Assembly: GCA_000004985.1 (NCBI GenBank)
Contig: GG738845.1
From: Naegleria gruberi
Taxonomy: Eukaryota
Reading direction: 5' to 3' (one strand)
Length of the DNA stretch: 64,000 nucleotides
Positions 13,709 to 60,686 of the stretch are shown in pieces. How positions within the stretch are numbered: the first letter of the stretch is position 1; each line of letters starts with the position of its first letter. A program made the position numbers and the translations under genes. Below the pieces are notes generated by a model. That model was not told the origin of the DNA and ran no database searches. It saw only the letters and a program-made list of their open reading frames with translations.

Positions 13709-13797
13709 AGAATTCTTATATTAATTTAAATCTATAATTATTGATTGTAATACTGGTGTTAATAGATGGAAAATTTAAATAAAAATCTATTAGAAAA

Positions 13798-16700
13798 ATG
13801 AGTCAACAACAAGATGCTCCACAAACTTCATCTCTTCCGAACACAACAACAACAGAGGCTGGAGCATCAACAACAACATCGGAACAACAAATCAACTCAA
13901 TAACATCAACACCAAATATATCATTTGAAAGTAATTTATTTGCTAATCTTCCGAATCATGATCCCACATTGAAACGTACATGTTGTTCTTTCAATGATAC
14001 TACAATTGCATTCGGTACGGAACAGGGGCATATTTACTTTCATGATAGATATACACTAGAATTAAAATTAACAATTACACATCAAGAGTTGGGTCAGAAG
14101 AGAAATTTTACTTTACCAATAACAAGAGTTTCTTTAACACCTAACTTGATCACCAATGATAAAAGGAGAGCTTTTATTGGAGCTGTAGATTCAGCATTTA
14201 TTGTATATATATTTGAAATTGAATTGACAGTCCAACAAATTGGAAATGCTAATGTTTGTTTTCCTAAAGTGGCCAGATTGCTAAACTCTCATTCACAACA
14301 CAAATTCGAAGTCACTTGTATTGCATGGGCTAATGATTTTCTCAAACTTTTTACTGGTGACACTTCAGGATTTGTTTTCGAGTTTAAAAATCAGAAAAAA
14401 TCACTCCTTTCTATTGGAAATTCTACACAAATTTTGAAAGAGGATGGTGCAGGAATTGTACAGCTATCTGTTTCTGGTGATCATTTACTCGTCTCTTCAA
14501 CAAAGCGTTCCATAGATGTTAATCTTTCAGCACAGCAGTATAAGGGTATTGGAACAAAACCAAGAGATGGTGTTTTTGGCGCATGCTTCCAATATGCTCT
14601 CAAAAAGAAAGAAGAAAACTCAGTTTCCACTCAAGATCAGTACACCATTTACGCATTTTCAGCCAGACCTGGAAGAAGAATTTGGTGTTCAGATATCACT
14701 ACTTGTAAGGTATTGTCAACCCTCAAATTTCCATCTGTGTCACAAGTCAAAGATCTCAAATTTACTCATCTTCTCAGTGTAGGTCCATATCTTGCCTCAT
14801 ACAATGAAGAAACAGTTACTATTTTGGATATTGTCAAATTGAAAATTTTGGATGTGAAATATGGAATAGGAACAATCAAACATGCATCTAGCTTTGGATT
14901 TTCCATGTTTATTGTACATGTTGATGAAAATTCCAATCATATTGTCAGTAGAATAGACTTACAACTTCCAGAAAATGAGAAACAATTCTTTATCAACCAA
15001 ATCCTACCAAAAGTTAGTAGACCAATTACAACCAATCCACAACAACCTGTGCAACCTCCACAACAGCCTCAACAAACTTCACAACCAGTCCAACAACCAG
15101 CACAGAAAAAGGACGAAAATCCACTTCAGCTCATTACTGGTTTGTTAAAAAGAAATGATACCCCTCCAGTGCCTCTTGTTAAAACTCCAAGTAATCCAAT
15201 TTTAATCAACTCTCAAAAAGAAACAGCCTCTTCTAGTGGTAATAGTACGCCAACAACCCCTGCCTCCATTTCTACCTCTTCTATACCTAAAGTTATTGCT
15301 ACAAGTAACAACACTCCAAAAGAAGAAAAGTTATTAGATTTTGAGAATGTAAAGATTGTTTCCACACCACCACCAAAATCTTCTTCCGCATTCTCTTTTT
15401 CATTACCTTCTGTTCAGCTCAAAGACAAATTTTCTGATTTGACAAGTGAAATGATGAAAAAAGCTGCAGCTGTTCTACCTAAACAAGATAAGGAACAACC
15501 AACAGCCAAACCACAAGAAGATATTAAGCCAACTGTAGAAGAGCCAAAACAACCCCAAAAAGATGAAAGTTGGTCTGCCCCAATGGTAGTCCAACCAAAG
15601 AAGATTAAAAAGAAGAAAAAGAAGCCTGAGCGACTCATTAGTTTTGATGGAAGTACCGCTGAACCAACACTCTTAATTGAAGAGAAGAAACCAAAAAAGA
15701 CCAGCTCTAAAAGAAGAACAAAATCTAAGGACTTTGATCAACTCTCACAAGTTTCAGATGATACCAGTAAAACTGGCTCCCTTGGATCAGATAATGAGGA
15801 TAGTGATAACACAGAAGATACTATTACAAGTTCTTCCAGCTTAGTTGATCCTTCACCAATTACTGAAAATTTACCAGCCATGGTTACTGAAGGTGACAAA
15901 TCACCTGGTACACCTTTAGAGAAGGAAGAACCTGTTCCTGAGCAAAAAACTGAACTTACAGAAAGTACTGAAGTTACTAACGTTGCACCAATTATTGAGG
16001 AAATCAAATCTAACGAAGAAATTCCTTATGATGACAACAGTAAGGATACTTCAGTAGCAATTCTTGAAATAATTGATACCGTAACAACAATAGAAGAAGA
16101 AACAATAGATCATATTCAACCTTCTGTTACTGACTCAATTCAAGTAATTGAGCCTGCGGAAAATGAACAAGAAATTCCAGTTGAGTCTGTAGTAAGTGGA
16201 GATGAATCAACAACAAAACAAGTCTCACCAGAAACTACAGAAGAAATTGAAACTATTTCTGAACAAGAAAAACAAGATTTGGAAAAGAAACAAGAGGAGG
16301 AGAGAAGAGAATTGCAACGTATCGAAGATGAAAACAAAAAAGCTGAACAAGAGAGAATTAGAATTGAGGAAGAAAAACTTAAAGAACAAGAAAGGATTGC
16401 AGAGGAAAAAAGAAAAGAAGAAGAACGACTTGCGGAAGAGAGAAGAAAAGAGCAAGAACGTACAGCAGAAGAAAAGAGAAAAAAGGAAGAGGAAGAAGAA
16501 AAGAGAATTGCAGAAGAGAGAAGAAAGAAGGAACTTGAAAGGCTCGAAGAAGAGAGGAAGAGAAAAGAGCAAGAGGAAAAACAAAGGCTCGAAGAGGAAA
16601 AAAGAAAGGAACAAGAAAGGCTTGAGGAAGAAAGAAAGAGAAAGGAACAGGAAAGAATTGAAGAAGAAAAAAGAAAGAGAGAAGAATTAATCAAAAAGAA

Positions 16701-18345
16701 ACATGCTTCCTTCTTTGAACTTATTGTGGAACCTATGGATAGCCTGTTTGAACAATTGGCAAACTTTTTAAGTGTGGGAGATGGAATTTGGTGTCCTAAA
16801 TTTACTTCCACACTCAAGACATGGTTTGACGATTTTGTAAAGTTAGTAGAGACAGAGCAAAAAGAAAAACATGACTATTGCATAATATCTGAAATGATTT
16901 CTCAAGAATTGAATGAAGAACAACAAAGCCAACTTTCCAAACTGCTCAACTTTAGATTTGAGAGATTATTTGCTGAGGAAACTATTGAAAAACCTTACAT
17001 TTCTCGCGTACTCTCCATATTACATGAATTTTTATTCATGTCTCAATGCTGTACACTCTGTAATTCTCATAACTGTGCTGAGTGCATTAACACTATTTTT
17101 GAAATTGAAGACCAACATAACTACCTCTCAGAAGAAAGAAAGAATATTGATAGACTTTTCGAACAATTCAAGGTAAAGAACTCTATGGAAATTAGAGACC
17201 AAATATTCAAAGATATCGACTCTTTAAAGAATGATTACCCCTCTATTCCATTGAGATATACACTAGCACTATCTAAACTTCCTGGAGGACATGAGCTTTG
17301 TGCTCTACTTTATCCTTATATCCAAGTGTGGAATTACAATAATGCAATTGGTACTGAAAGCAATCATTCAAAGTATATCCAATATCTAATGAGTGTTTAC
17401 AAGCTTAACCATTCTAGCCATATTAGTCATCAATTTATGGAACACTTTGTTATCAAATTGGTTACCAATTTTGAGAGAAATGTCCACGAATCACTGATTA
17501 TCAACATTATTGATGAGGCTCAAAGTAAGCTTAATTGCTTTAGTGACACTCACTTTTTAGAGAAGGAATTGAAAAAGACTCCCTCAACTCAACACTGCCT
17601 CCACTATTTTTATGAAAAGTTTGATAAGATATCAGAGTTAATAGATTTGATTGTCAGAGGTGATAGCTTGAATAATCTTGCAACCTTTATGGAAAAACAT
17701 TACGAAAATCAACAAAATTGGATTACACTAATGAATTGCATTGAAAATAGTCCAAAATCAATATGTACAAAAGAGCAAGCTGTATTTTTAATGTGTAAAT
17801 GTCTGGGATCTTTGCAAACTCTAAATATTTTGCAAGATGCCTCTGTAGAAAGTTGTCTACACGATGTTGATCCAATAATTTACACCAAGATTTGTCAATT
17901 AGCCAGAGCAGAAACAGAACAAAGCAAGCTAAGACATAACATGATAGAAATCATGGACAGCTACATGTGGTCAGAAAAGGATGAGTGCATTGCTCCACAA
18001 ATAAGGTCAATTTTATCCTTCCAAACTGACATTCCACCTTCCCTCTTCAGTTCCATTAATACACCTGAAGAGTCGTTCCCTTACATGGCTTCATTCTTCA
18101 AATTAGACAATTCCAAGTCCTCACTCAATGAATTCCAAACAGAGCTTCCAAGATTCACAGAAGACTGTGGATCAAACTGGGGATCTCAGATAAGAGTTGG
18201 CAAAACAGCCAGATGCTTCTGTTGCAGATTACCTCTCACAGAACGAGTTGGTGGTGATGTATTGGTATTCCCATGTGGACATTGTTATCATCGTTCTTGC
18301 AATCCTCTCGAAGTTTGTACTCACAACGGATGTAGAGATGCATAA
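13798..18345 (+). CDS. Vps8/Vps41-like protein with an N-terminal beta-propeller-like region, a central low-complexity plus ER/K-rich helical insert, and a C-terminal RING-H2
   Basis: A 1515-aa ORF. The C terminus is CFCCRLPL...VLVFPCGHCYHRSC...C.H..C, the pattern C-x2-C ... VFxCGHxYH. The middle is P/Q/T-rich, with a KKIKKKKKK stretch and a ~150-aa E/R/K repeat. Confidence 0.55.
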   Translation: MSQQQDAPQTSSLPNTTTTEAGASTTTSEQQINSITSTPNISFESNLFANLPNHDPTLKRTCCSFNDTTIAFGTEQGHIYFHDRYTLELKLTITHQELGQKRNFTLPITRVSLTPNLITNDKRRAFIGAVDSAFIVYIFEIELTVQQIGNANVCFPKVARLLNSHSQHKFEVTCIAWANDFLKLFTGDTSGFVFEFKNQKKSLLSIGNSTQILKEDGAGIVQLSVSGDHLLVSSTKRSIDVNLSAQQYKGIGTKPRDGVFGACFQYALKKKEENSVSTQDQYTIYAFSARPGRRIWCSDITTCKVLSTLKFPSVSQVKDLKFTHLLSVGPYLASYNEETVTILDIVKLKILDVKYGIGTIKHASSFGFSMFIVHVDENSNHIVSRIDLQLPENEKQFFINQILPKVSRPITTNPQQPVQPPQQPQQTSQPVQQPAQKKDENPLQLITGLLKRNDTPPVPLVKTPSNPILINSQKETASSSGNSTPTTPASISTSSIPKVIATSNNTPKEEKLLDFENVKIVSTPPPKSSSAFSFSLPSVQLKDKFSDLTSEMMKKAAAVLPKQDKEQPTAKPQEDIKPTVEEPKQPQKDESWSAPMVVQPKKIKKKKKKPERLISFDGSTAEPTLLIEEKKPKKTSSKRRTKSKDFDQLSQVSDDTSKTGSLGSDNEDSDNTEDTITSSSSLVDPSPITENLPAMVTEGDKSPGTPLEKEEPVPEQKTELTESTEVTNVAPIIEEIKSNEEIPYDDNSKDTSVAILEIIDTVTTIEEETIDHIQPSVTDSIQVIEPAENEQEIPVESVVSGDESTTKQVSPETTEEIETISEQEKQDLEKKQEEERRELQRIEDENKKAEQERIRIEEEKLKEQERIAEEKRKEEERLAEERRKEQERTAEEKRKKEEEEEKRIAEERRKKELERLEEERKRKEQEEKQRLEEEKRKEQERLEEERKRKEQERIEEEKRKREELIKKKHASFFELIVEPMDSLFEQLANFLSVGDGIWCPKFTSTLKTWFDDFVKLVETEQKEKHDYCIISEMISQELNEEQQSQLSKLLNFRFERLFAEETIEKPYISRVLSILHEFLFMSQCCTLCNSHNCAECINTIFEIEDQHNYLSEERKNIDRLFEQFKVKNSMEIRDQIFKDIDSLKNDYPSIPLRYTLALSKLPGGHELCALLYPYIQVWNYNNAIGTESNHSKYIQYLMSVYKLNHSSHISHQFMEHFVIKLVTNFERNVHESLIINIIDEAQSKLNCFSDTHFLEKELKKTPSTQHCLHYFYEKFDKISELIDLIVRGDSLNNLATFMEKHYENQQNWITLMNCIENSPKSICTKEQAVFLMCKCLGSLQTLNILQDASVESCLHDVDPIIYTKICQLARAETEQSKLRHNMIEIMDSYMWSEKDECIAPQIRSILSFQTDIPPSLFSSINTPEESFPYMASFFKLDNSKSSLNEFQTELPRFTEDCGSNWGSQIRVGKTARCFCCRLPLTERVGGDVLVFPCGHCYHRSCNPLEVCTHNGCRDA
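16250..16700. repeat. Purine-rich GAA/AAG/AGA coding repeat (ER/K-rich single alpha-helix segment of the 13798..18345 gene)
   Basis: Repeats such as EEERLAEERRKEQERTAEEKRKKEEEE generate three spurious overlapping track ORFs (16140..16817 -, 16196..16690 +, 16225..16614 -). Confidence 0.7.
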
Positions 18346-18669
18346 AATACATTGTTTTTTTATGTGGACTTTTCTGACAATAGATTCTACCAATTCAAAA
18401 TGTAATCTTCATGTTGTAAAATTCTCATATGTTTACGAACTAGATATTTTCCAACAGTGCCTTTTTGGACAAATACAGCCCTATTATCATGCGCCCACAC
18501 CACTACTGTACACACATAACTTGTTGCATTCAAACTAACTGTTCAGAGTTTTCAATAGTGGGGTTTAACCCTCAATCAGCAGAACAGAAAAACACACTAA
18601 GAGTTGTTTGCGATGATATTTATTTAAACACTCGCCCCATGAGCGCATTGAGTTACCATTCAAAAAAAA

Positions 18670-20898
18670 ATGTCTGCATCCAAGACAGCTATTGTTTCAA
18701 CCTTAGTGGTTGTTATGATGGTTTTGATCCAAAGTGCCTTGTCTCTTAAGAATTCTGCCCACAAGAGAAGTGAAGATGACTGGATTCCGGGTAGGTTTTA
18801 TTGTTGTTCTTGTTGCGGATATTTATTCTGTAATTTTTTATATTAAGGCTACAATTACATGTTGAGCGGTTTCGACGTTAGAAGTATGCAAAGTTCTTCT
18901 AACAGCATGGATCCTGCTAAGAATGTTGTAAATTTAATTTTCAGACCAACCACTGAGTTTGGAACTTTGTACCGTATGCCAGTTTCTAAGGAAAAGTTTA
19001 AGGTACCAGATGCCATTGAAGTTTATGATTATGTTACTACAAACGTTACTAAAACATCAGACACTATGGAATCAATGTCTGAATCATTGAAGTATGAAGC
19101 TTCAAGCTATTCATTCTCATTCTCTGTCAACGTTGGTGTTGTCGGTGTTAGTGCTGGTTTGAACACATCTTTTGGCCACATTCACCAAACCTTTGCTCAA
19201 AGCAATCTCTTTATGGCCACTGGTTCTATTAGAGGTACTATTTATCAAGCTACCCTTGAACCACCAACATTCTTGGAACAAAATCCATACTTTAAGAGAG
19301 CTTTGGCTGCCATTCCAAACACTCCAACTGCTGCCGATTTGGACAAGATTAATACCTTGATCAAATACTTTGGTGTTTCATATGTTTCAAAGGGTGTTTT
19401 CGGTGGTAAATTCAATTTGATCACTAAGGTTTCTGATAAGATCCTCAAGTCCTATGACAAGTCTTGGTGTATTACTCAATTGTCCTTGACCTTCAGTTAT
19501 GGCGCTTATTCATTTGGTATGTCTGGATTCAAAAATAAGACTGATATCCATGTCAATAATGATTTTGCCAATAACGCCAAGACTGACATGTTCTTCGTTG
19601 GTGGTGACTTTACTTTGCAAAGTAACGAAACTCTTAAGGAATGGTACCAATCAATTCCAGGCCAACCATCCCTTATCGGAGGTGAATTCAATTTGATTTC
19701 TGATTTGGTTGATAACAATGCTGTAAAGAAGAAGAATTTGGAAGCCATCTTGAAGAACTATGTTGCCACTGGTAGAGTTGAAATTCCTGCTTCCATCAAG
19801 AAGATTGCTGTTCCTCATCCACTCAAGAGAAATGTCCTCCTTGATCTTTCTCGTATTCCAGGTGCTGCCTTGATTGGTTCTGGTTTCGATACCTTTACGT
19901 AAGTTGTTTTTTGTTTAAATCTCAACTAATTAACGTTAAATAGTCTCACTCCAAGATTGAGTCTTTTCAAGCAAGCTCCAGATTCCAAGGCTACTACTTG
20001 GACTAATCCAATCTATAAGGATATTCAATTCGCTGTTCCAGGAAACGTCCTCGTCAGAAATAATGCTGAATCATACTATGCTAACAGCACTTTTGTTGCT
20101 TTGACCAAGCAAGAATACGAATATCAATATAGAGAACACTCCTCTAAATCTGGCATGTTCGGTTTGAGTCACCATTCTAGAGATGTTTTCATTTATAACT
20201 ATCGTTATGAATTTGAAGATTCTTACCAATTGAATACTTTCAGAAGAATTTCTTGGTATGATTTGTCATTGGATCCTCTCTGTTTGTTCGATCTTAATAA
20301 CCGTCTTGAACCATTTGCTAAGAGAATGATTGATTCTCTCCCAGCTACTGGTGGTGATCAAAAAGAAGTCAGAGATAAGTACAAGAAGTTTATCGATTAC
20401 TATGGTACTGCTGTTGTCACCAAGACAACTATGGGTGGTGGTATCTTCTTCAAGGTTAACTTTAAGAAGGATTTGACCAAGACTTTGAGCATTCATGAAA
20501 TCCACGAACAATCTGGATGGTCATTCCTCCACATTTTCGGTGAAAAGTCAACTCACGATTTCTATCTTAAGAAGTTGTCTCAACAGTTCATTCAACACTC
20601 GTCTGTTGAATTCAACACTCAAGGTGGTTCTTGGACTCCAGAAATTAACGGTGTTAGACCAACTGGTCCAAATGCTCTTAACATTATTGATTCTCCAGAA
20701 GGTTACATGAGTTGGGAAGATTATGCTAACTCTATCAAGTATGACCCATACCCAGTCAACTATGAATTGCAACCAATTCACACTATCTTTGCTGATAAGG
20801 CCAAGCAAGGTATTATGAAGTCTGTTCTTGATGAATATCTCCAAGAAAAGTACAATCAAAAGCCAGCTTCATTCTCCAGAGCCGGTAAGGAATACTAA
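18670..20898 (+). CDS. Secreted protein with two tandem MACPF (perforin-like) domains; 3 exons, ~708 aa
   Basis: Exon 1 is 18670..18790 and encodes the signal peptide MSASKTAIVSTLVVVMMVLIQSALS. A 57-nt intron lies at 18791..18847 (GTAGGT...TTAAG). Exon 2 is 18848..19898. A 45-nt intron lies at 19899..19943 (GTAAGT...AATAG), in phase. Exon 3 is 19944..20898. Each half carries SGFD...SFSFSVNVGVVGVSAG...YFGVSYVSKGVFGG or YYGTAVVTKTTMGGG, and a C9-like end (YDPYPVNYELQPIHTIF). Confidence 0.75.
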
Positions 20899-20923
20899 AT
20901 AAATATAATTGTTGTTTATTCAA

Positions 20924-23070
20924 TTAAAGCTTATCAAAATCTTGTATTTCTAATATCAATTTTTTCATTTCCTCAATAATGTCTTGACTGGAATTGTGCT
21001 TGTTGCATCCATTCTTCAAAAGAAAATTAAGGAGATGAATCTTTTCTTCCAAAGTTACCCGTATAGAGGTCAATCTATCATAGAACAAGGTGGTGAGATT
21101 AAAGGTAGATTTAACCTTTTTCTTCTCTAGTTGATTATTTACAGTAACCATCAATTTCGAATTAGGTGTAGAATTAATTAAGAGAGGATACCAAAAGGAT
21201 GATTTGACTGCGTTTCTATTGAGTAAAATTGGATGAGCCAGAGTTGTTTGAAAAGGCTGTCTCAGAAATTGTGAATAAATAAAAGGTACCTTTGTTTTAA
21301 ATTTAGGAATTGAGTTGATAGTTTTCATGTGTAACCTATCCTCACGATAAGTATTGAAAGACTGCATAAAAAGTCAAAATTCTCATCTCTACCAACATTT
21401 TCACGTAAAATTTCCTCAACACTCTTATGATACATATTTTGAATGATAGCTTGAATTCCTTTCCTATTGAGCTCCAAATGTGAATCTCCAGAACAGTTAT
21501 CAATAATATGACAAAGTAAGTAATCCAACTTTGCTCCTCTAATGAATAAATCACCACTACCACTTTTACATTCTTTCAAAATAGAATAATATTCTGGTGA
21601 TAGTGAAATATTCCTTGATATTTCTGATACTATTGTTGGTGCGGTAATATTACAATGATTGGAATGGGATCTGGTTGCTAGTAGAATAATAATAAACGTT
21701 GGAGAAAATGTAAAAGGCACCTGGTCGGTAATAGATGGTACCTTAGTCTGAAGAGATTCGAAAACACGATCCAACAATCCAACTTTCATAAAACTAGTTT
21801 GCTCAGCTCTGTAAAGATCATAAAGGAGGGCTATTGTCATCCAATTTGTCAAGTTGATAGGGCATTTTCCAATACTATTTGATTTCAAAATATTATCCAT
21901 CTTCACCAACAGTGACTCTAGATTTTCTTTCTCTTCAGGCGTAAAAACCGAGTCAACTATTTCAGGAGTAATCTCTCTAATTGATATTTCATCCTCACTA
22001 GAACGAAATATTCTATCTCTAAAATAATCCAATTGCCTGAGTAAATCCTTAAACAAATCAGTACACTCCCCAAAACAATAGCTCACCAAACAAGTCATTA
22101 GAGAAAACCAATCAGAATCATTGTTAGTGTATGGAATGTTATCGCGTATTTGTACCATCCATTCCTCAAATTTTGAATTCTTATAAACTGAATCAGTTAA
22201 TAATGACTGTTGAATAGCATTACTATCCAAATTTGGAATATGTTTTTCTAGCAGTTTACAGAAATAATCAACTTGCATTATTGACTCGTCACTAGAAAGA
22301 AAGCAATCAATGTCACCATTCTCCAATTTACGTATTCTCCAACTTTTCTCCCTCAATGAATCAGTATTATCCTCCATTATCATTGGAGGTTCAGGAATAG
22401 ACAATGTTCTCTCATCTTCATCTCCATTACTCATTAGAATATTAATCTTCCTCTCCAATGGTGCCCAACTATATGAAGAGTAGGTCGTTTTCCTATTTTC
22501 TCTCTGTTCATTCCAAATATTGAATACAGTTTCAATACATTCAGGAAGTGACTGTTGAGTGGTGAATAAATTTAAAACTGAATCGCTTGTTGAACCACTC
22601 AACAAATCAACATCATCCACCAACAAACTGATAATTTTCGGAAAGTTATACTGTCTAATATTGGGATATGAAAAAGTTGCTCTAAAATCATGTAAACACA
22701 TTCCATCATTAATTTTCATAGCCATCAATGGATTGAATAATAAATTCAAATGAAATGATAGACAATTATTCGCTTGTAATGATGATGATTCAATTGAAAC
22801 TCTATCATTATTAATTAAATTATAATTTAATATTATATCGAGAATACACTCTTGCTCTGACAAGGCTTGTTGAGAGGAGGGAAATAACAAATTGAATTTA
22901 GCAAATGATTTGTTCCAATCGGAGACTTGATTTCTTGTTGTTATATTGTTGTTTTCCGAGTAGAGAGAAATAAGCCACTCTACTAATTCATTGTGTACTA
23001 GATGATTGAATAATTGTTGCCCAGAGGAATCATGTTTCATGTTTTTAAATTTTTTTGTTAAGAAATGCAT
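20924..23070 (-). CDS. Uncharacterised protein (~715 aa)
   Basis: Exon 1 is 23070..21397 and exon 2 is 21361..20924. They are joined by a 35-nt intron at 21396..21362 (GTTGGT...TTTTTATGCAG), giving ...EILREN-SFNTYREDRL. The intron is short with a weak 5' site, so the junction is tentative. Confidence 0.45.
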
Positions 23071-23096
23071 AATATTTAATAATTAAAAAGAATGAG

Positions 23097-23169
23097 TGGA
23101 GATGCGGGGTATCGATCCCCGTACCTCTTCCATGCTAAAGAAGCGCTCTACCATGTGAGCTACATCCCC
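23097..23169 (-). tRNA. tRNA-Ala (anticodon AGC), 73 nt
   Basis: A cloverleaf I folded by hand. The acceptor stem GGGGATG/CATCTCC has the G3:U70 alanine identity pair. The D stem is GCTC/GAGC, the anticodon stem CTTCT/GGAAG, the loop TTAGCAT with U33 and A37, and the T stem CGGGG/CCCCG. A discriminator A is present and no CCA is encoded. The T loop ATCGATA has A54 instead of T54, and the D loop deviates from the usual A-box. Confidence 0.8.
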
Positions 23170-59120: not shown

Positions 59121-60686
59121 ATGGTCAAGCTTCAACTTGTTGCTGTCTTTGCCATTCTTTTGGTATGCATGAGTGCATTGGCTAGTTGTACCTCCTTCAA
59201 ACAAGCTTTGGGAGATTACGTCAGTCAACCAGAAAGTGCCTACTCTTACAAGTTAATTGGTTCTAGAACCATTACTGGAGCAACAATTTACACCTTGAAT
59301 GTTACTTCATTAACTTGGTTGCCAACCTCAGAAGTTGGTGCTGCCAACACTTGGTTCCACTATGTTGAAATTACCATTCCAAACAATTTGAATAAGAATA
59401 ATCATGAAAGTTTATTCTTCATTACTAATGGTGATAACAATGTTGCTGTTCCTGGTGCCACTGATGCCTCTGCCTCTCCAATTTATGTTCCTTCCTTCAT
59501 GTATAGTACTGCTGTAGCTACAAAGAGTGTTACTGCTATTGTTTATATGATTCCAAATCAACCAATTACTTATAATTCTGATCCAACTTTGGCTAGTCGT
59601 GTTGAAGATGCTATTATTGGTTATGGATGGAATCGTTTCATGAGCAATACTACAAATAGTAATCTTTTATATGTTACTCAATTGCCTCAAGTTAAGGGAA
59701 GTAAGATGGCCATGGATGCTGTTGTTTCATTTGTTAAGAAACAAGCTAATCATGTCATTGACCAATTCACTGTCAGTGGTGCTTCAAAGAGAGGGTAAGT
59801 ATATTTTAGTCAATTGAGTCATTTAACATTTTATTAGTTGGACAACCATTCTTTTGGCTGCTGTTGATAGCCGTGTTGCTGCCATTGCTCCAATGGTCAT
59901 TCCAGTATTCGGAACTAAGGATTTCATTGTCAGAACATACAATAACTTGTGTGCTTGGCCTTGGGCTTTCTATGATTATGTCAGTAATGGAGTTACTGAT
60001 AAGCTTTTCAATAATGTTTTTGAAAGTTTGACCGACATTGTTGATCCATTGAATTACAATAGATTGAAGAATATTCCAAAGTATCAAATTCTCTCATTGG
60101 GTGATGAATTCTTTGCTCCGTAAGTTTCTACATACTTTCCATTAGTTTCTAATATTATATATATATATTCAGTGATCTCAATAACCTTGCCTACTCAAAG
60201 ATTAAGGGTGAAAAGTATGTCCGTTTCATTCCAAACACTGGTCACTTGATGTTGAACTCTGACGTCTTACCAGTTCTCGGTTCCTTCTACGCCTCCAGAT
60301 TGGCCAACACTGTCCTTCCAAAGTATACCTTCTCTCACGAATTTGTCGATAACGGTGTTATTATCTATGTTTCAGTTACTAATGGTGCCAAGCCAACCTC
60401 TGTCAAATTGTGGAGTGCCACCAATCCAAGCACTCGTGATTTCAGAACCTCAACTATTGGTGCTGATGTCTGGAAGAACTCAACCTTGGTTGAAGTTAGA
60501 GAATCTGAATGGCAAGCTTTTGTTAGAAATCCAACAACTGGTTGGACTACTGCTATGATTGAATTGACTTTTGCTAATTCTGTCAGCACTGAACCATTGG
60601 TTTTCACATCAAATGCTTTCATTACTCCTGATACTTTGCCATGTAATATTAGTAAGAAGAATTTGCCAACTCACAACATGATTTAA
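59121..60686 (+). CDS. Secreted alpha/beta-hydrolase-like protein, candidate PhoPQ-activated pathogenicity-related (PqaA) family member (3 exons, 489 aa)
   Basis: The exons are 59121..59794, 59838..60119 and 60173..60686. The introns are 43 nt (59795..59837, GTAAGT...TATTAG) and 53 nt (60120..60172, GTAAGT...ATTCAG). The signal peptide is MVKLQLVAVFAILLVCMSALAS. The motif TVSGASKRG|WTTILLAAVDSRVAAIAPMV spans intron 1. Confidence 0.55.

Follow-up and report, generated by a model that had tools for sequence, protein, structure and literature searches.

In this study, we analysed a 64,000 nucleotide (nt) stretch of Naegleria gruberi DNA (contig GG738845.1 of assembly GCA_000004985.1; hereafter the window), with a focus on a gene at positions 18670-20898 of the plus strand whose spliced product is a 708 amino acid (aa) protein carrying two membrane attack complex/perforin (MACPF) domains in tandem. 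The two domains, here termed the N and C modules, represent two anciently diverged types, and we consider it probable, from sequence features and predicted structure, that the protein acts as a single-chain heterotypic pore former in which the N module would insert into the membrane and the C module would serve as its partner. A preliminary description, made from the letters alone, had proposed a secreted double-MACPF protein of an amoeboid protist, and the source organism is indeed such a protist. All features described below lie on the plus strand unless otherwise indicated.

MACPF identity, module types and family

By both hidden Markov model (HMM) comparison and fold, the protein is a member of the MACPF superfamily. 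Pfam MACPF (PF01823, with a gathering score of 21.5 bits) reached 110.5 bits on the whole protein, and each half also passed the scan separately, with 61.9 bits for the N half (profile positions 3-214) and 57.1 bits for the C half (profile positions 58-214), in agreement with the two domains originally proposed. No Pfam domain other than MACPF was detected in the protein at E <= 1. A profile built from 28 family members matched the solved chains of C6 (E = 5.8e-23) and perforin (E = 3e-22), and additionally those of C7, TgPLP1, C8-beta, MPEG1, C9, GNIP1Aa, Mpf2Ba1 and Plu-MACPF, with the matching stretches coming from both halves. The AlphaFold2 model of the full-length protein (mean predicted local distance difference test score, pLDDT, of 78.6) displays four long strands and two helical clusters per half, i.e. 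the bent four-stranded sheet flanked by CH1/CH2 helical clusters that is typical of the MACPF fold and for which a structure prediction had been suggested. In Foldseek searches the full model matched Mpf2Ba1 (E = 1.7e-15) and perforin (E = 1.1e-13), and, overall, the structure models matched the solved pore formers MPEG-1, Mpf2Ba1, GNIP1Aa, perforin and C9. The protein was also expected to be secreted, and a predicted signal peptide was located at residues 1-25 (18670-18744), with a hydrophobic core at residues ~6-26, the only strongly hydrophobic stretch of the protein, and an A-x-S site before L26; no second hydrophobic segment was observed beyond this N-terminal signal sequence. The entire protein contains two cysteines, and ~13 residues follow the C module.

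The N module comprises residues 40-350 (18787..19776, with intron 1 inside) and is modelled with long bent strands at residues 97-114, 161-177, 218-236 and 284-291/315-323, between which lie its two helical clusters. The latter correspond to the putative transmembrane hairpin (TMH) regions, namely N TMH1/CH1 (residues 115-160, 19069..19206, containing YSFSFSVNVGVVGVSAGL) and N TMH2/CH2 (residues 237-283, 19435..19575, containing ITQLSLTFSYGAYSFGMSGF). The N signature, YFGVSYVSKGVFGG, spans residues 214-227 (19366..19407), and its G216 and G226 are invariant in the 28 family members. An inter-module linker (residues 351-376, 19777..19854), which has a pLDDT below 50 at residues 359-371 and varies in length between homologues, leads to the C module (residues 377-695, 19855..20856, with intron 2 inside). 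Its C TMH1/CH1 region (residues 444-483, 20101..20220, EYEYQYRE...FIYNYRYEFE) is modelled with helices at 446-457 and 470-481, and its His-rich C TMH2/CH2 region (residues 566-609, 20467..20598), which carries a conserved QSGWSFLHIFG, as a helical cluster at 568-608. The C signature, YYGTAVVTKTTMGGG, occupies residues 543-557 (20398..20442), with G545 and G555 invariant and G556 nearly so in the same 28 members. Every motif quoted in the preliminary description was located, i.e. SFSFSVNVGVVGVSAG at residues 128-143, YDPYPVNYELQPIHTIF at 657-673 and LDEYLQEKY at 685-693 in addition to the two signatures. The 'C9-like' character attributed to the C-terminal motif did not hold: the motif represents the final strand and helix that are general to MACPF domains, terminates the N half likewise, and constitutes no specific link to C9.

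A BLASTP comparison of the two halves yielded 29% identity over 65 residues only; profile-profile alignment of the N and C modules with hhalign (28 members) aligned them end to end over 288 columns at 18% identity (probability 100%, E = 4.1e-40). Both modules share a PG-x-x-x-G-x-G-F/Y-D start, P-I-F and V-P-D motifs and a terminal W...P...P-I..L-I strand-helix, some of which extend beyond the Pfam model. These alignments show that the halves go back to an ancient duplication in which an entire MACPF unit of ~310 residues was copied, and that they have since diverged into two types. A recent internal duplication, for which a percent identity check had been proposed, is ruled out by the ~18% identity between the halves at profile level, and a fusion of unrelated MACPF lineages is likewise ruled out by the end-to-end alignment of the two module profiles.

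Word-indexed protein searches, which overlooked even the window's own exon 2 product on two occasions, retrieved 2 or 3 relatives, a yield that does not argue for the absence of an orthologue from other Naegleria species. To place the protein among its relatives, a profile search seeded with an alignment of two homologues and two exon translations was run exhaustively against 1.84 billion cluster representatives. This search returned 762 matches at E <= 0.001, of which 88 had E <= 1e-30, and the best 150 representatives were classed with separate N and C module HMMs. The N-C order was found in 48-50 of these 150, with 10-11 more displaying N-C order with a split C match; in 34, each module is matched over more than 200 profile positions, and these proteins are 559-861 aa in length. 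The N-terminus is hydrophobic in 21 of the 30 members that start with Met. Many of the matches classed as 'N only' or 'C only' probably represent fragments or genes split by the gene caller, and the exon products of N. gruberi themselves appear as two separate entries of these types. Named members include Willaertia magna (Heterolobosea), Carpediemonas membranifera (Metamonada), which carries two paralogues annotated 'MAC/Perforin domain', and Soliformovum irregulare (Amoebozoa), in addition to members from EukProt transcriptomes. By our own, not curated, definition, family members are proteins of ~600-730 aa in which a signal peptide precedes an N-type module that is connected through a short linker to a C-type module, with no other domain. 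The N. gruberi protein conforms to this layout, with 568 bits on the N and 597 bits on the C module HMM in N-C order. The view that double-MACPF proteins are rare is thus correct with regard to the literature, but not with regard to sequence space, where ~60 of the best 150 representatives present the same N-C layout. What is new is a conserved tandem of two module types, in fixed order and with no accessory domain, that is common to distant free-living protists and giant viruses.

Proposed division of labour between the modules

From comparison of their hairpin regions across the family, the two modules appear to be functionally asymmetric. In the family profile, N TMH1 constitutes the strongest period-2 amphipathic window of the whole protein (99.9th percentile) and N TMH2 lies at the 99.7th percentile, as against the 76th and 75th percentiles for C TMH1 and C TMH2, respectively. 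When scored per sequence, N TMH1 reached the protein's own 95th percentile in 17 of 28 members and N TMH2 in 24 of 28, relative to a control in which 42% of random regions of equal length did so; the corresponding C regions remained below this control (9/28 for C TMH1 and 5/28 for C TMH2). The alternation of N TMH1 is visible in the alignment, and both N regions are modelled as helix or coil. Additionally, the hairpin regions measure 46 and 47 residues in the N module and 40 and 44 in the C module, whose clusters are shorter, carry more charge and histidine and do not conserve amphipathicity. These observations are suggestive of a division of labour in which the N module would insert and the C module would act as its partner.

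According to this proposal, the protein, a soluble, signal peptide-bearing chain with a flexible linker of ~25 residues, would enter the secretory or endolysosomal route and, once on a target membrane, would oligomerise side by side as do other MACPF proteins. The helical clusters of the N module would unfurl into amphipathic beta-hairpins lining the pore, and the C module, in which the fold and the Gly-Gly hinge are both maintained, would be a built-in partner alternating with the N module in the ring. Its contribution may lie in assembly, regulation or partial insertion, comparable to that of C8-beta, C6 and C7 beside C8-alpha and C9, and such a ring would be built from half as many polypeptides. 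The pore might be used to kill or permeabilise ingested or nearby prey, which is the weakest step of the proposal; as N. gruberi is a bacterivorous amoeba, prey killing is a natural guess. Besides prey killing, the preliminary description had named defence and developmental membrane remodelling as candidate roles of MACPF proteins in amoeboid protists.

Several points weigh against this interpretation. The amphipathicity control is a demanding one, the enrichment of N TMH1 over it is modest (17/28 versus 42%), and poor alignment of the C hairpin regions may blur their signal at family level. The C TMH1 region of N. gruberi itself alternates aromatic and charged residues and reaches the 95th percentile, and both modules may therefore insert. 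How the N and C modules are oriented towards each other is not confidently predicted (predicted template modelling score of 0.48), and their side-by-side intramolecular arrangement is accordingly a conjecture. Furthermore, the N signature reads F-G-V-S-Y-x6-G-G and the C signature Y-G-T-A-V-x6-G-G, which are degenerate at two or three positions relative to the canonical Y/W-G-T/S-H-F/Y-x6-G-G; in distant family members the N-module signature is FGTHY-x6-GG. Finally, astrotactins, Torso-like, BRINPs and plant CAD1 are MACPF proteins that are not known to be lytic pore formers.

The foremost alternative, which we regard as rather unlikely, is that both modules insert equally, in which case the protein would be a covalent homodimer-like pore former with four hairpin regions per chain and no division of labour. 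Each module does retain the Gly-Gly motif together with a pair of helical clusters, which measure 40-47 residues, the aromatic/charged alternation of the N. gruberi C TMH1 fits this scenario, and the same idea has been raised for multi-MACPF chains in a review of piroplasm perforin-like proteins (PLPs) (PMC7522308). However, the low family-profile ranks of the C hairpins, their shortfall relative to the random-region control, and the fact that the module types and their fixed order stayed distinct across the family all argue for unequal roles. Somewhat less likely still is a non-lytic function like that of astrotactins, Torso-like, BRINPs and plant CAD1/NSL1, with the fold serving in signalling, adhesion, vesicle or cyst-wall biology, or controlled membrane remodelling. 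Such a function would be compatible with the lack of a recognisable membrane-targeting domain (C2, APC-beta or MABP) by Pfam, and the pore-forming reading draws on sequence and predicted structure only. Nevertheless, proteins with proven pore-forming activity give the best structural matches, the N hairpin regions are the top period-2 amphipathic stretches, which is hard to explain without membrane insertion, and a signal peptide combined with the absence of a membrane anchor suits a released, toxin-like protein. Unequal insertion, in which the N module would pierce the membrane, is the reading we favour.

Gene structure, splicing and locus

The source DNA is nuclear DNA of N. gruberi NEG-M, as four intron-less open reading frames (ORFs) of the window match deposited proteins exactly, on a scaffold of 1.56 Mb. 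Three same-frame pieces are present at 18670-20898, and splicing of 18670-18790, 18848-19898 and 19944-20898 generates an ORF of 2127 nt, stop codon included, for a protein of 708 aa. Its sequence exactly matches that of the deposited N. gruberi protein EFC50572.1 / XP_002683316.1 / UniProt D2UX64, the record of which is labelled only 'predicted protein' (NAEGRDRAFT_61653); the gene is thus already deposited, though uncharacterised. Literature searches of the library covered identified nothing on the accessions of this gene or on any Naegleria MACPF protein, nor anything relevant for the combination of MACPF, amoeba and protist.

Exon 1 (18670..18790) contains the start codon and encodes the signal peptide, a short spacer and the beginning of the N module, and the three-exon structure with a signal-peptide exon at this location, as had been predicted, agrees with the deposited annotation. 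Intron 1 (18791..18847) is a 57-nt phase 1 intron with the boundaries GTAGGT...TTAAG, as implied by the deposited 708-aa model. Exon 2 (18848..19898) covers most of the N module together with the linker and also encodes the opening strand of the C module, IPGAALIGSGFDTF, and on its own is present as a prokaryote-style gene call of 347 aa (P0010). It is followed by intron 2 (19899..19943), a phase 2 intron of 45 nt (GTAAGT...AATAG) across which the frame is kept and within which lies the stop that separates the two long same-frame ORFs, exactly as first described. Exon 3 (19944..20898) encodes the remainder of the C module and a short tail, and terminates in a TAA stop codon at 20896-20898. Retention of intron 2 would lead to termination at a TAA spanning the donor site (19900-19902) and to a product of ~410 aa composed of the N module and the first strand of the C module, which is a possible regulated isoform.

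Comparison with homologues argues strongly that 18670-20898 is a single gene spliced in this manner, and this argument is strong because five lines of evidence converge. Firstly, the second ORF lacks both a start codon and a signal peptide of its own, and the C module already begins, with its first strand, upstream of the stop. Secondly, both exon junctions align without gaps to homologues. The Willaertia magna homologue (680 aa, 50% identity, 96% coverage) aligns in this manner across the exon 1/2 junction (WIP/GYNYMLSGFD, the slash marking the junction, to Willaertia GPVPGFQYMLSGFN) and across the exon 2/3 junction (GSGFDTFT/LTPRLSLF to Willaertia GSGFDLLTAQPKLNLF); the latter also aligns to the viral-contig ORF segment GSGYDPITKQIKTTIF, and both junctions are gapless against a 652-aa protein from a Logan contig. 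Thirdly, this 652-aa protein and a relative of 656 aa are encoded by uninterrupted single ORFs on gene-dense, intron-less contigs. Fourthly, the Willaertia gene possesses one intron of 58 nt, located in the inter-module linker ~30 codons upstream of N. gruberi intron 2 (L002:10980-11100). Fifthly, the sequence changes in a second isolate, described below, fit an intact gene. Conservation of intron positions with Willaertia was considered; the sole Willaertia intron coincides with neither of the N. gruberi introns, and intron 1 has no counterpart in the Willaertia gene. The introns would therefore have been gained independently, in genuine eukaryotic genes.

The second isolate is represented by a metagenome contig (L004:1-9083; ENA ERZ929261, run ERR1078381) that is 99.35% identical to window positions 13772-22851, which points to the presence of a near-identical N. 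gruberi strain in that environmental sample. Seven coding differences distinguish its gene from that of the window, six of which are synonymous; the sole replacement, A30S, falls between the signal peptide and the first module, and one further substitution lies within intron 1. Assuming that ~1/4 of random changes are synonymous, the probability of at least six synonymous changes among seven is, by our own arithmetic, ~0.001. The pattern of substitution indicates that the tandem-MACPF gene is under purifying selection and is no pseudogene. The notion that two adjacent MACPF genes, or a decaying gene, were wrongly merged by the intron model is very improbable: although an in-frame stop does separate two long ORFs, for which prokaryote-style gene callers give two proteins (P0010 and P0159), that stop sits inside a canonical 45-nt GTAAGT...TAG intron, the downstream ORF has no plausible start, Willaertia and the two intron-less contigs carry both modules in one ORF, and decay is contradicted by six synonymous changes out of seven.

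The chromosomal neighbours are ordinary, with an HPS5-like gene upstream and Mic60 downstream, and, judged by its sequence context, the N. gruberi gene is without sign of recent acquisition. The upstream neighbour (13798-18345, 1515 aa) carries an HPS5-type beta-propeller (114 bits) and a long Glu/Lys/Arg-rich repeat region, and its cysteine-rich C-terminus gave a sub-threshold match to the Vps8 RING finger (16.7 bits relative to a cut-off of 27.4). With respect to codon usage, the GC content at third codon positions (GC3) of the MACPF gene is 0.37, which is above that of its neighbours and the second highest among the 28 long ORFs of the window, and the gene displays the strongest preference for AAG (0.89), GGT (0.77) and CCA (0.84) among these ORFs. 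This preference may reflect high expression, on an uncalibrated scale, as the window contains no ribosomal or benchmark gene. A similarly strong AAG/TTC preference was observed for an ORF at 59121-59798, which matches the bacterial-type 'PhoPQ-activated pathogenicity-related protein' family (133 bits). In addition, a tRNA-Ala(AGC) is located at 23096-23169 on the minus strand, 26 nt from the start codon of a 581-aa ORF on the same strand (21325-23070).

Giant-virus homologues and known MACPF systems

Two giant-virus-like contigs, L001 and L003, both of which we infer to be viral, encode full N-C tandem homologues that are 31% and ~23% identical to the Naegleria protein. L001 has a GC content of 24.6% and dense, intron-less genes, with matches to DUF5845, FNIP and F-box; its tandem-MACPF gene is directly followed by two single-MACPF genes with Cys-rich tails (L001:10001-15170). 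On L003 the tandem-MACPF gene stands back to back with a 469-aa MACPF gene (L003:8534-11971), with a 1243-aa family B DNA polymerase ~0.4 kb from this pair and split Rpb1 genes nearby. In a viral structure library, MACPF proteins were identified in Hyperionvirus (A0A3G5AAY6), Hokovirus HKV1 (three proteins, A0A1V0SEM7 / SHI4 / SEM2), Terrestrivirus and Orpheovirus, and Klosneuvirus-type giant viruses are among the carriers; the 1130-aa Hyperionvirus protein yielded a structural match with an E value of 4.6e-40 over 710 columns. Scans of a viral contig collection with the seed alignment and with the two viral-contig proteins retrieved no relative, and no paper on MACPF or perforin in giant viruses was retrieved from the library searched.

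In a neighbour-joining tree, Naegleria and Willaertia were positioned beside a metagenomic sequence and next to the viral-contig clade; this tree carries no support values and no direction of transfer was drawn from it. The giant-virus MACPF genes differ from that of Naegleria in being intron-less and in often adjoining single-MACPF genes with Cys-rich tails. Recent viral insertion in N. gruberi was rejected, given the two spliceosomal introns, the ordinary eukaryotic neighbours and a GC3 that exceeds that of the neighbours and is unlike the AT-rich L001. A broader scenario, which we deem improbable, is that the tandem is an ancient single-chain 'heterodimeric' pore former, in which only N would pierce the membrane and C would template assembly, and that it has passed between giant viruses (Klosneuvirus-like and others) and their amoeboid or flagellate hosts; it would serve the viruses in breaching the phagosomal or host membrane or in lysing the cell, and hosts such as Naegleria and Willaertia in killing prey. 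If true, this would provide a minimal, genetically fused model of a heteromeric MACPF assembly and the first role for a perforin-like protein in giant-virus biology.

Among characterised systems, C8 of the membrane attack complex offers a parallel, as its two MACPF domains act as one unit although they reside in separate chains (PMC3021121). C8-alpha and C8-beta combine two different, anciently diverged MACPF domains with unequal insertion, and both match the family profile (E = 7.6e-13 and 3.7e-16, respectively) as well as, structurally, the models. Unlike the Naegleria protein, however, they are separate polypeptides equipped with TSP1, LDLRA and EGF modules that act only in the C5b-9 cascade, and the Naegleria modules are each other's paralogues rather than orthologues of the C8 chains. 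Identification as a terminal complement component (C6-C9) was likewise rejected, since no TSP1, LDLRA or EGF domain was found by Pfam and only two cysteines are present.

Secreted single chains with multiple MACPF domains have also been predicted in piroplasms, namely Theileria annulata TA18285 and Babesia bovis BBOV_III000410, which are ~140 kDa in size with three predicted MACPF domains each, and for which it has been posed as an open question whether fewer monomers suffice per pore (PMC7522308). These chains belong to obligate parasites, and, by description, the Naegleria protein is set apart from them by its 708 aa, two modules and lack of a C-terminal domain. Apicomplexan PLPs carry an apicomplexan-specific beta-rich C-terminal domain after the MACPF domain, and conserved cysteine pairs (PMC7522308); the Naegleria protein, which lacks such a domain and has two cysteines, falls outside this group, and TgPLP1 matches it as a generic MACPF protein only. 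In MPEG1/perforin-2 (11% identity) the single MACPF domain is accompanied by a membrane-binding P2/MABP domain and a transmembrane anchor, extras that are absent from the Naegleria protein, and the bacterial insecticidal toxins Mpf2Ba1 and GNIP1Aa and the Photorhabdus protein Plu-MACPF (12-19% identity) combine a single MACPF domain with a C-terminal receptor-binding beta domain.

MACPF pores are usually composed of many copies of a one-domain subunit, the exception being the complement complex with its several different chains. The two-module chain would represent a natural single-chain version of a heteromeric MACPF assembly, and could make testable both the number of modules that insert and the contribution of neighbours that do not, a question that is left open in the review of apicomplexan PLPs (PMC7522308). 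The family also points to unstudied giant-virus MACPF genes, including full tandem homologues. For the free-living Heterolobosea, it would add a perforin-like candidate effector beside the naegleriapores, which are saposin-like.

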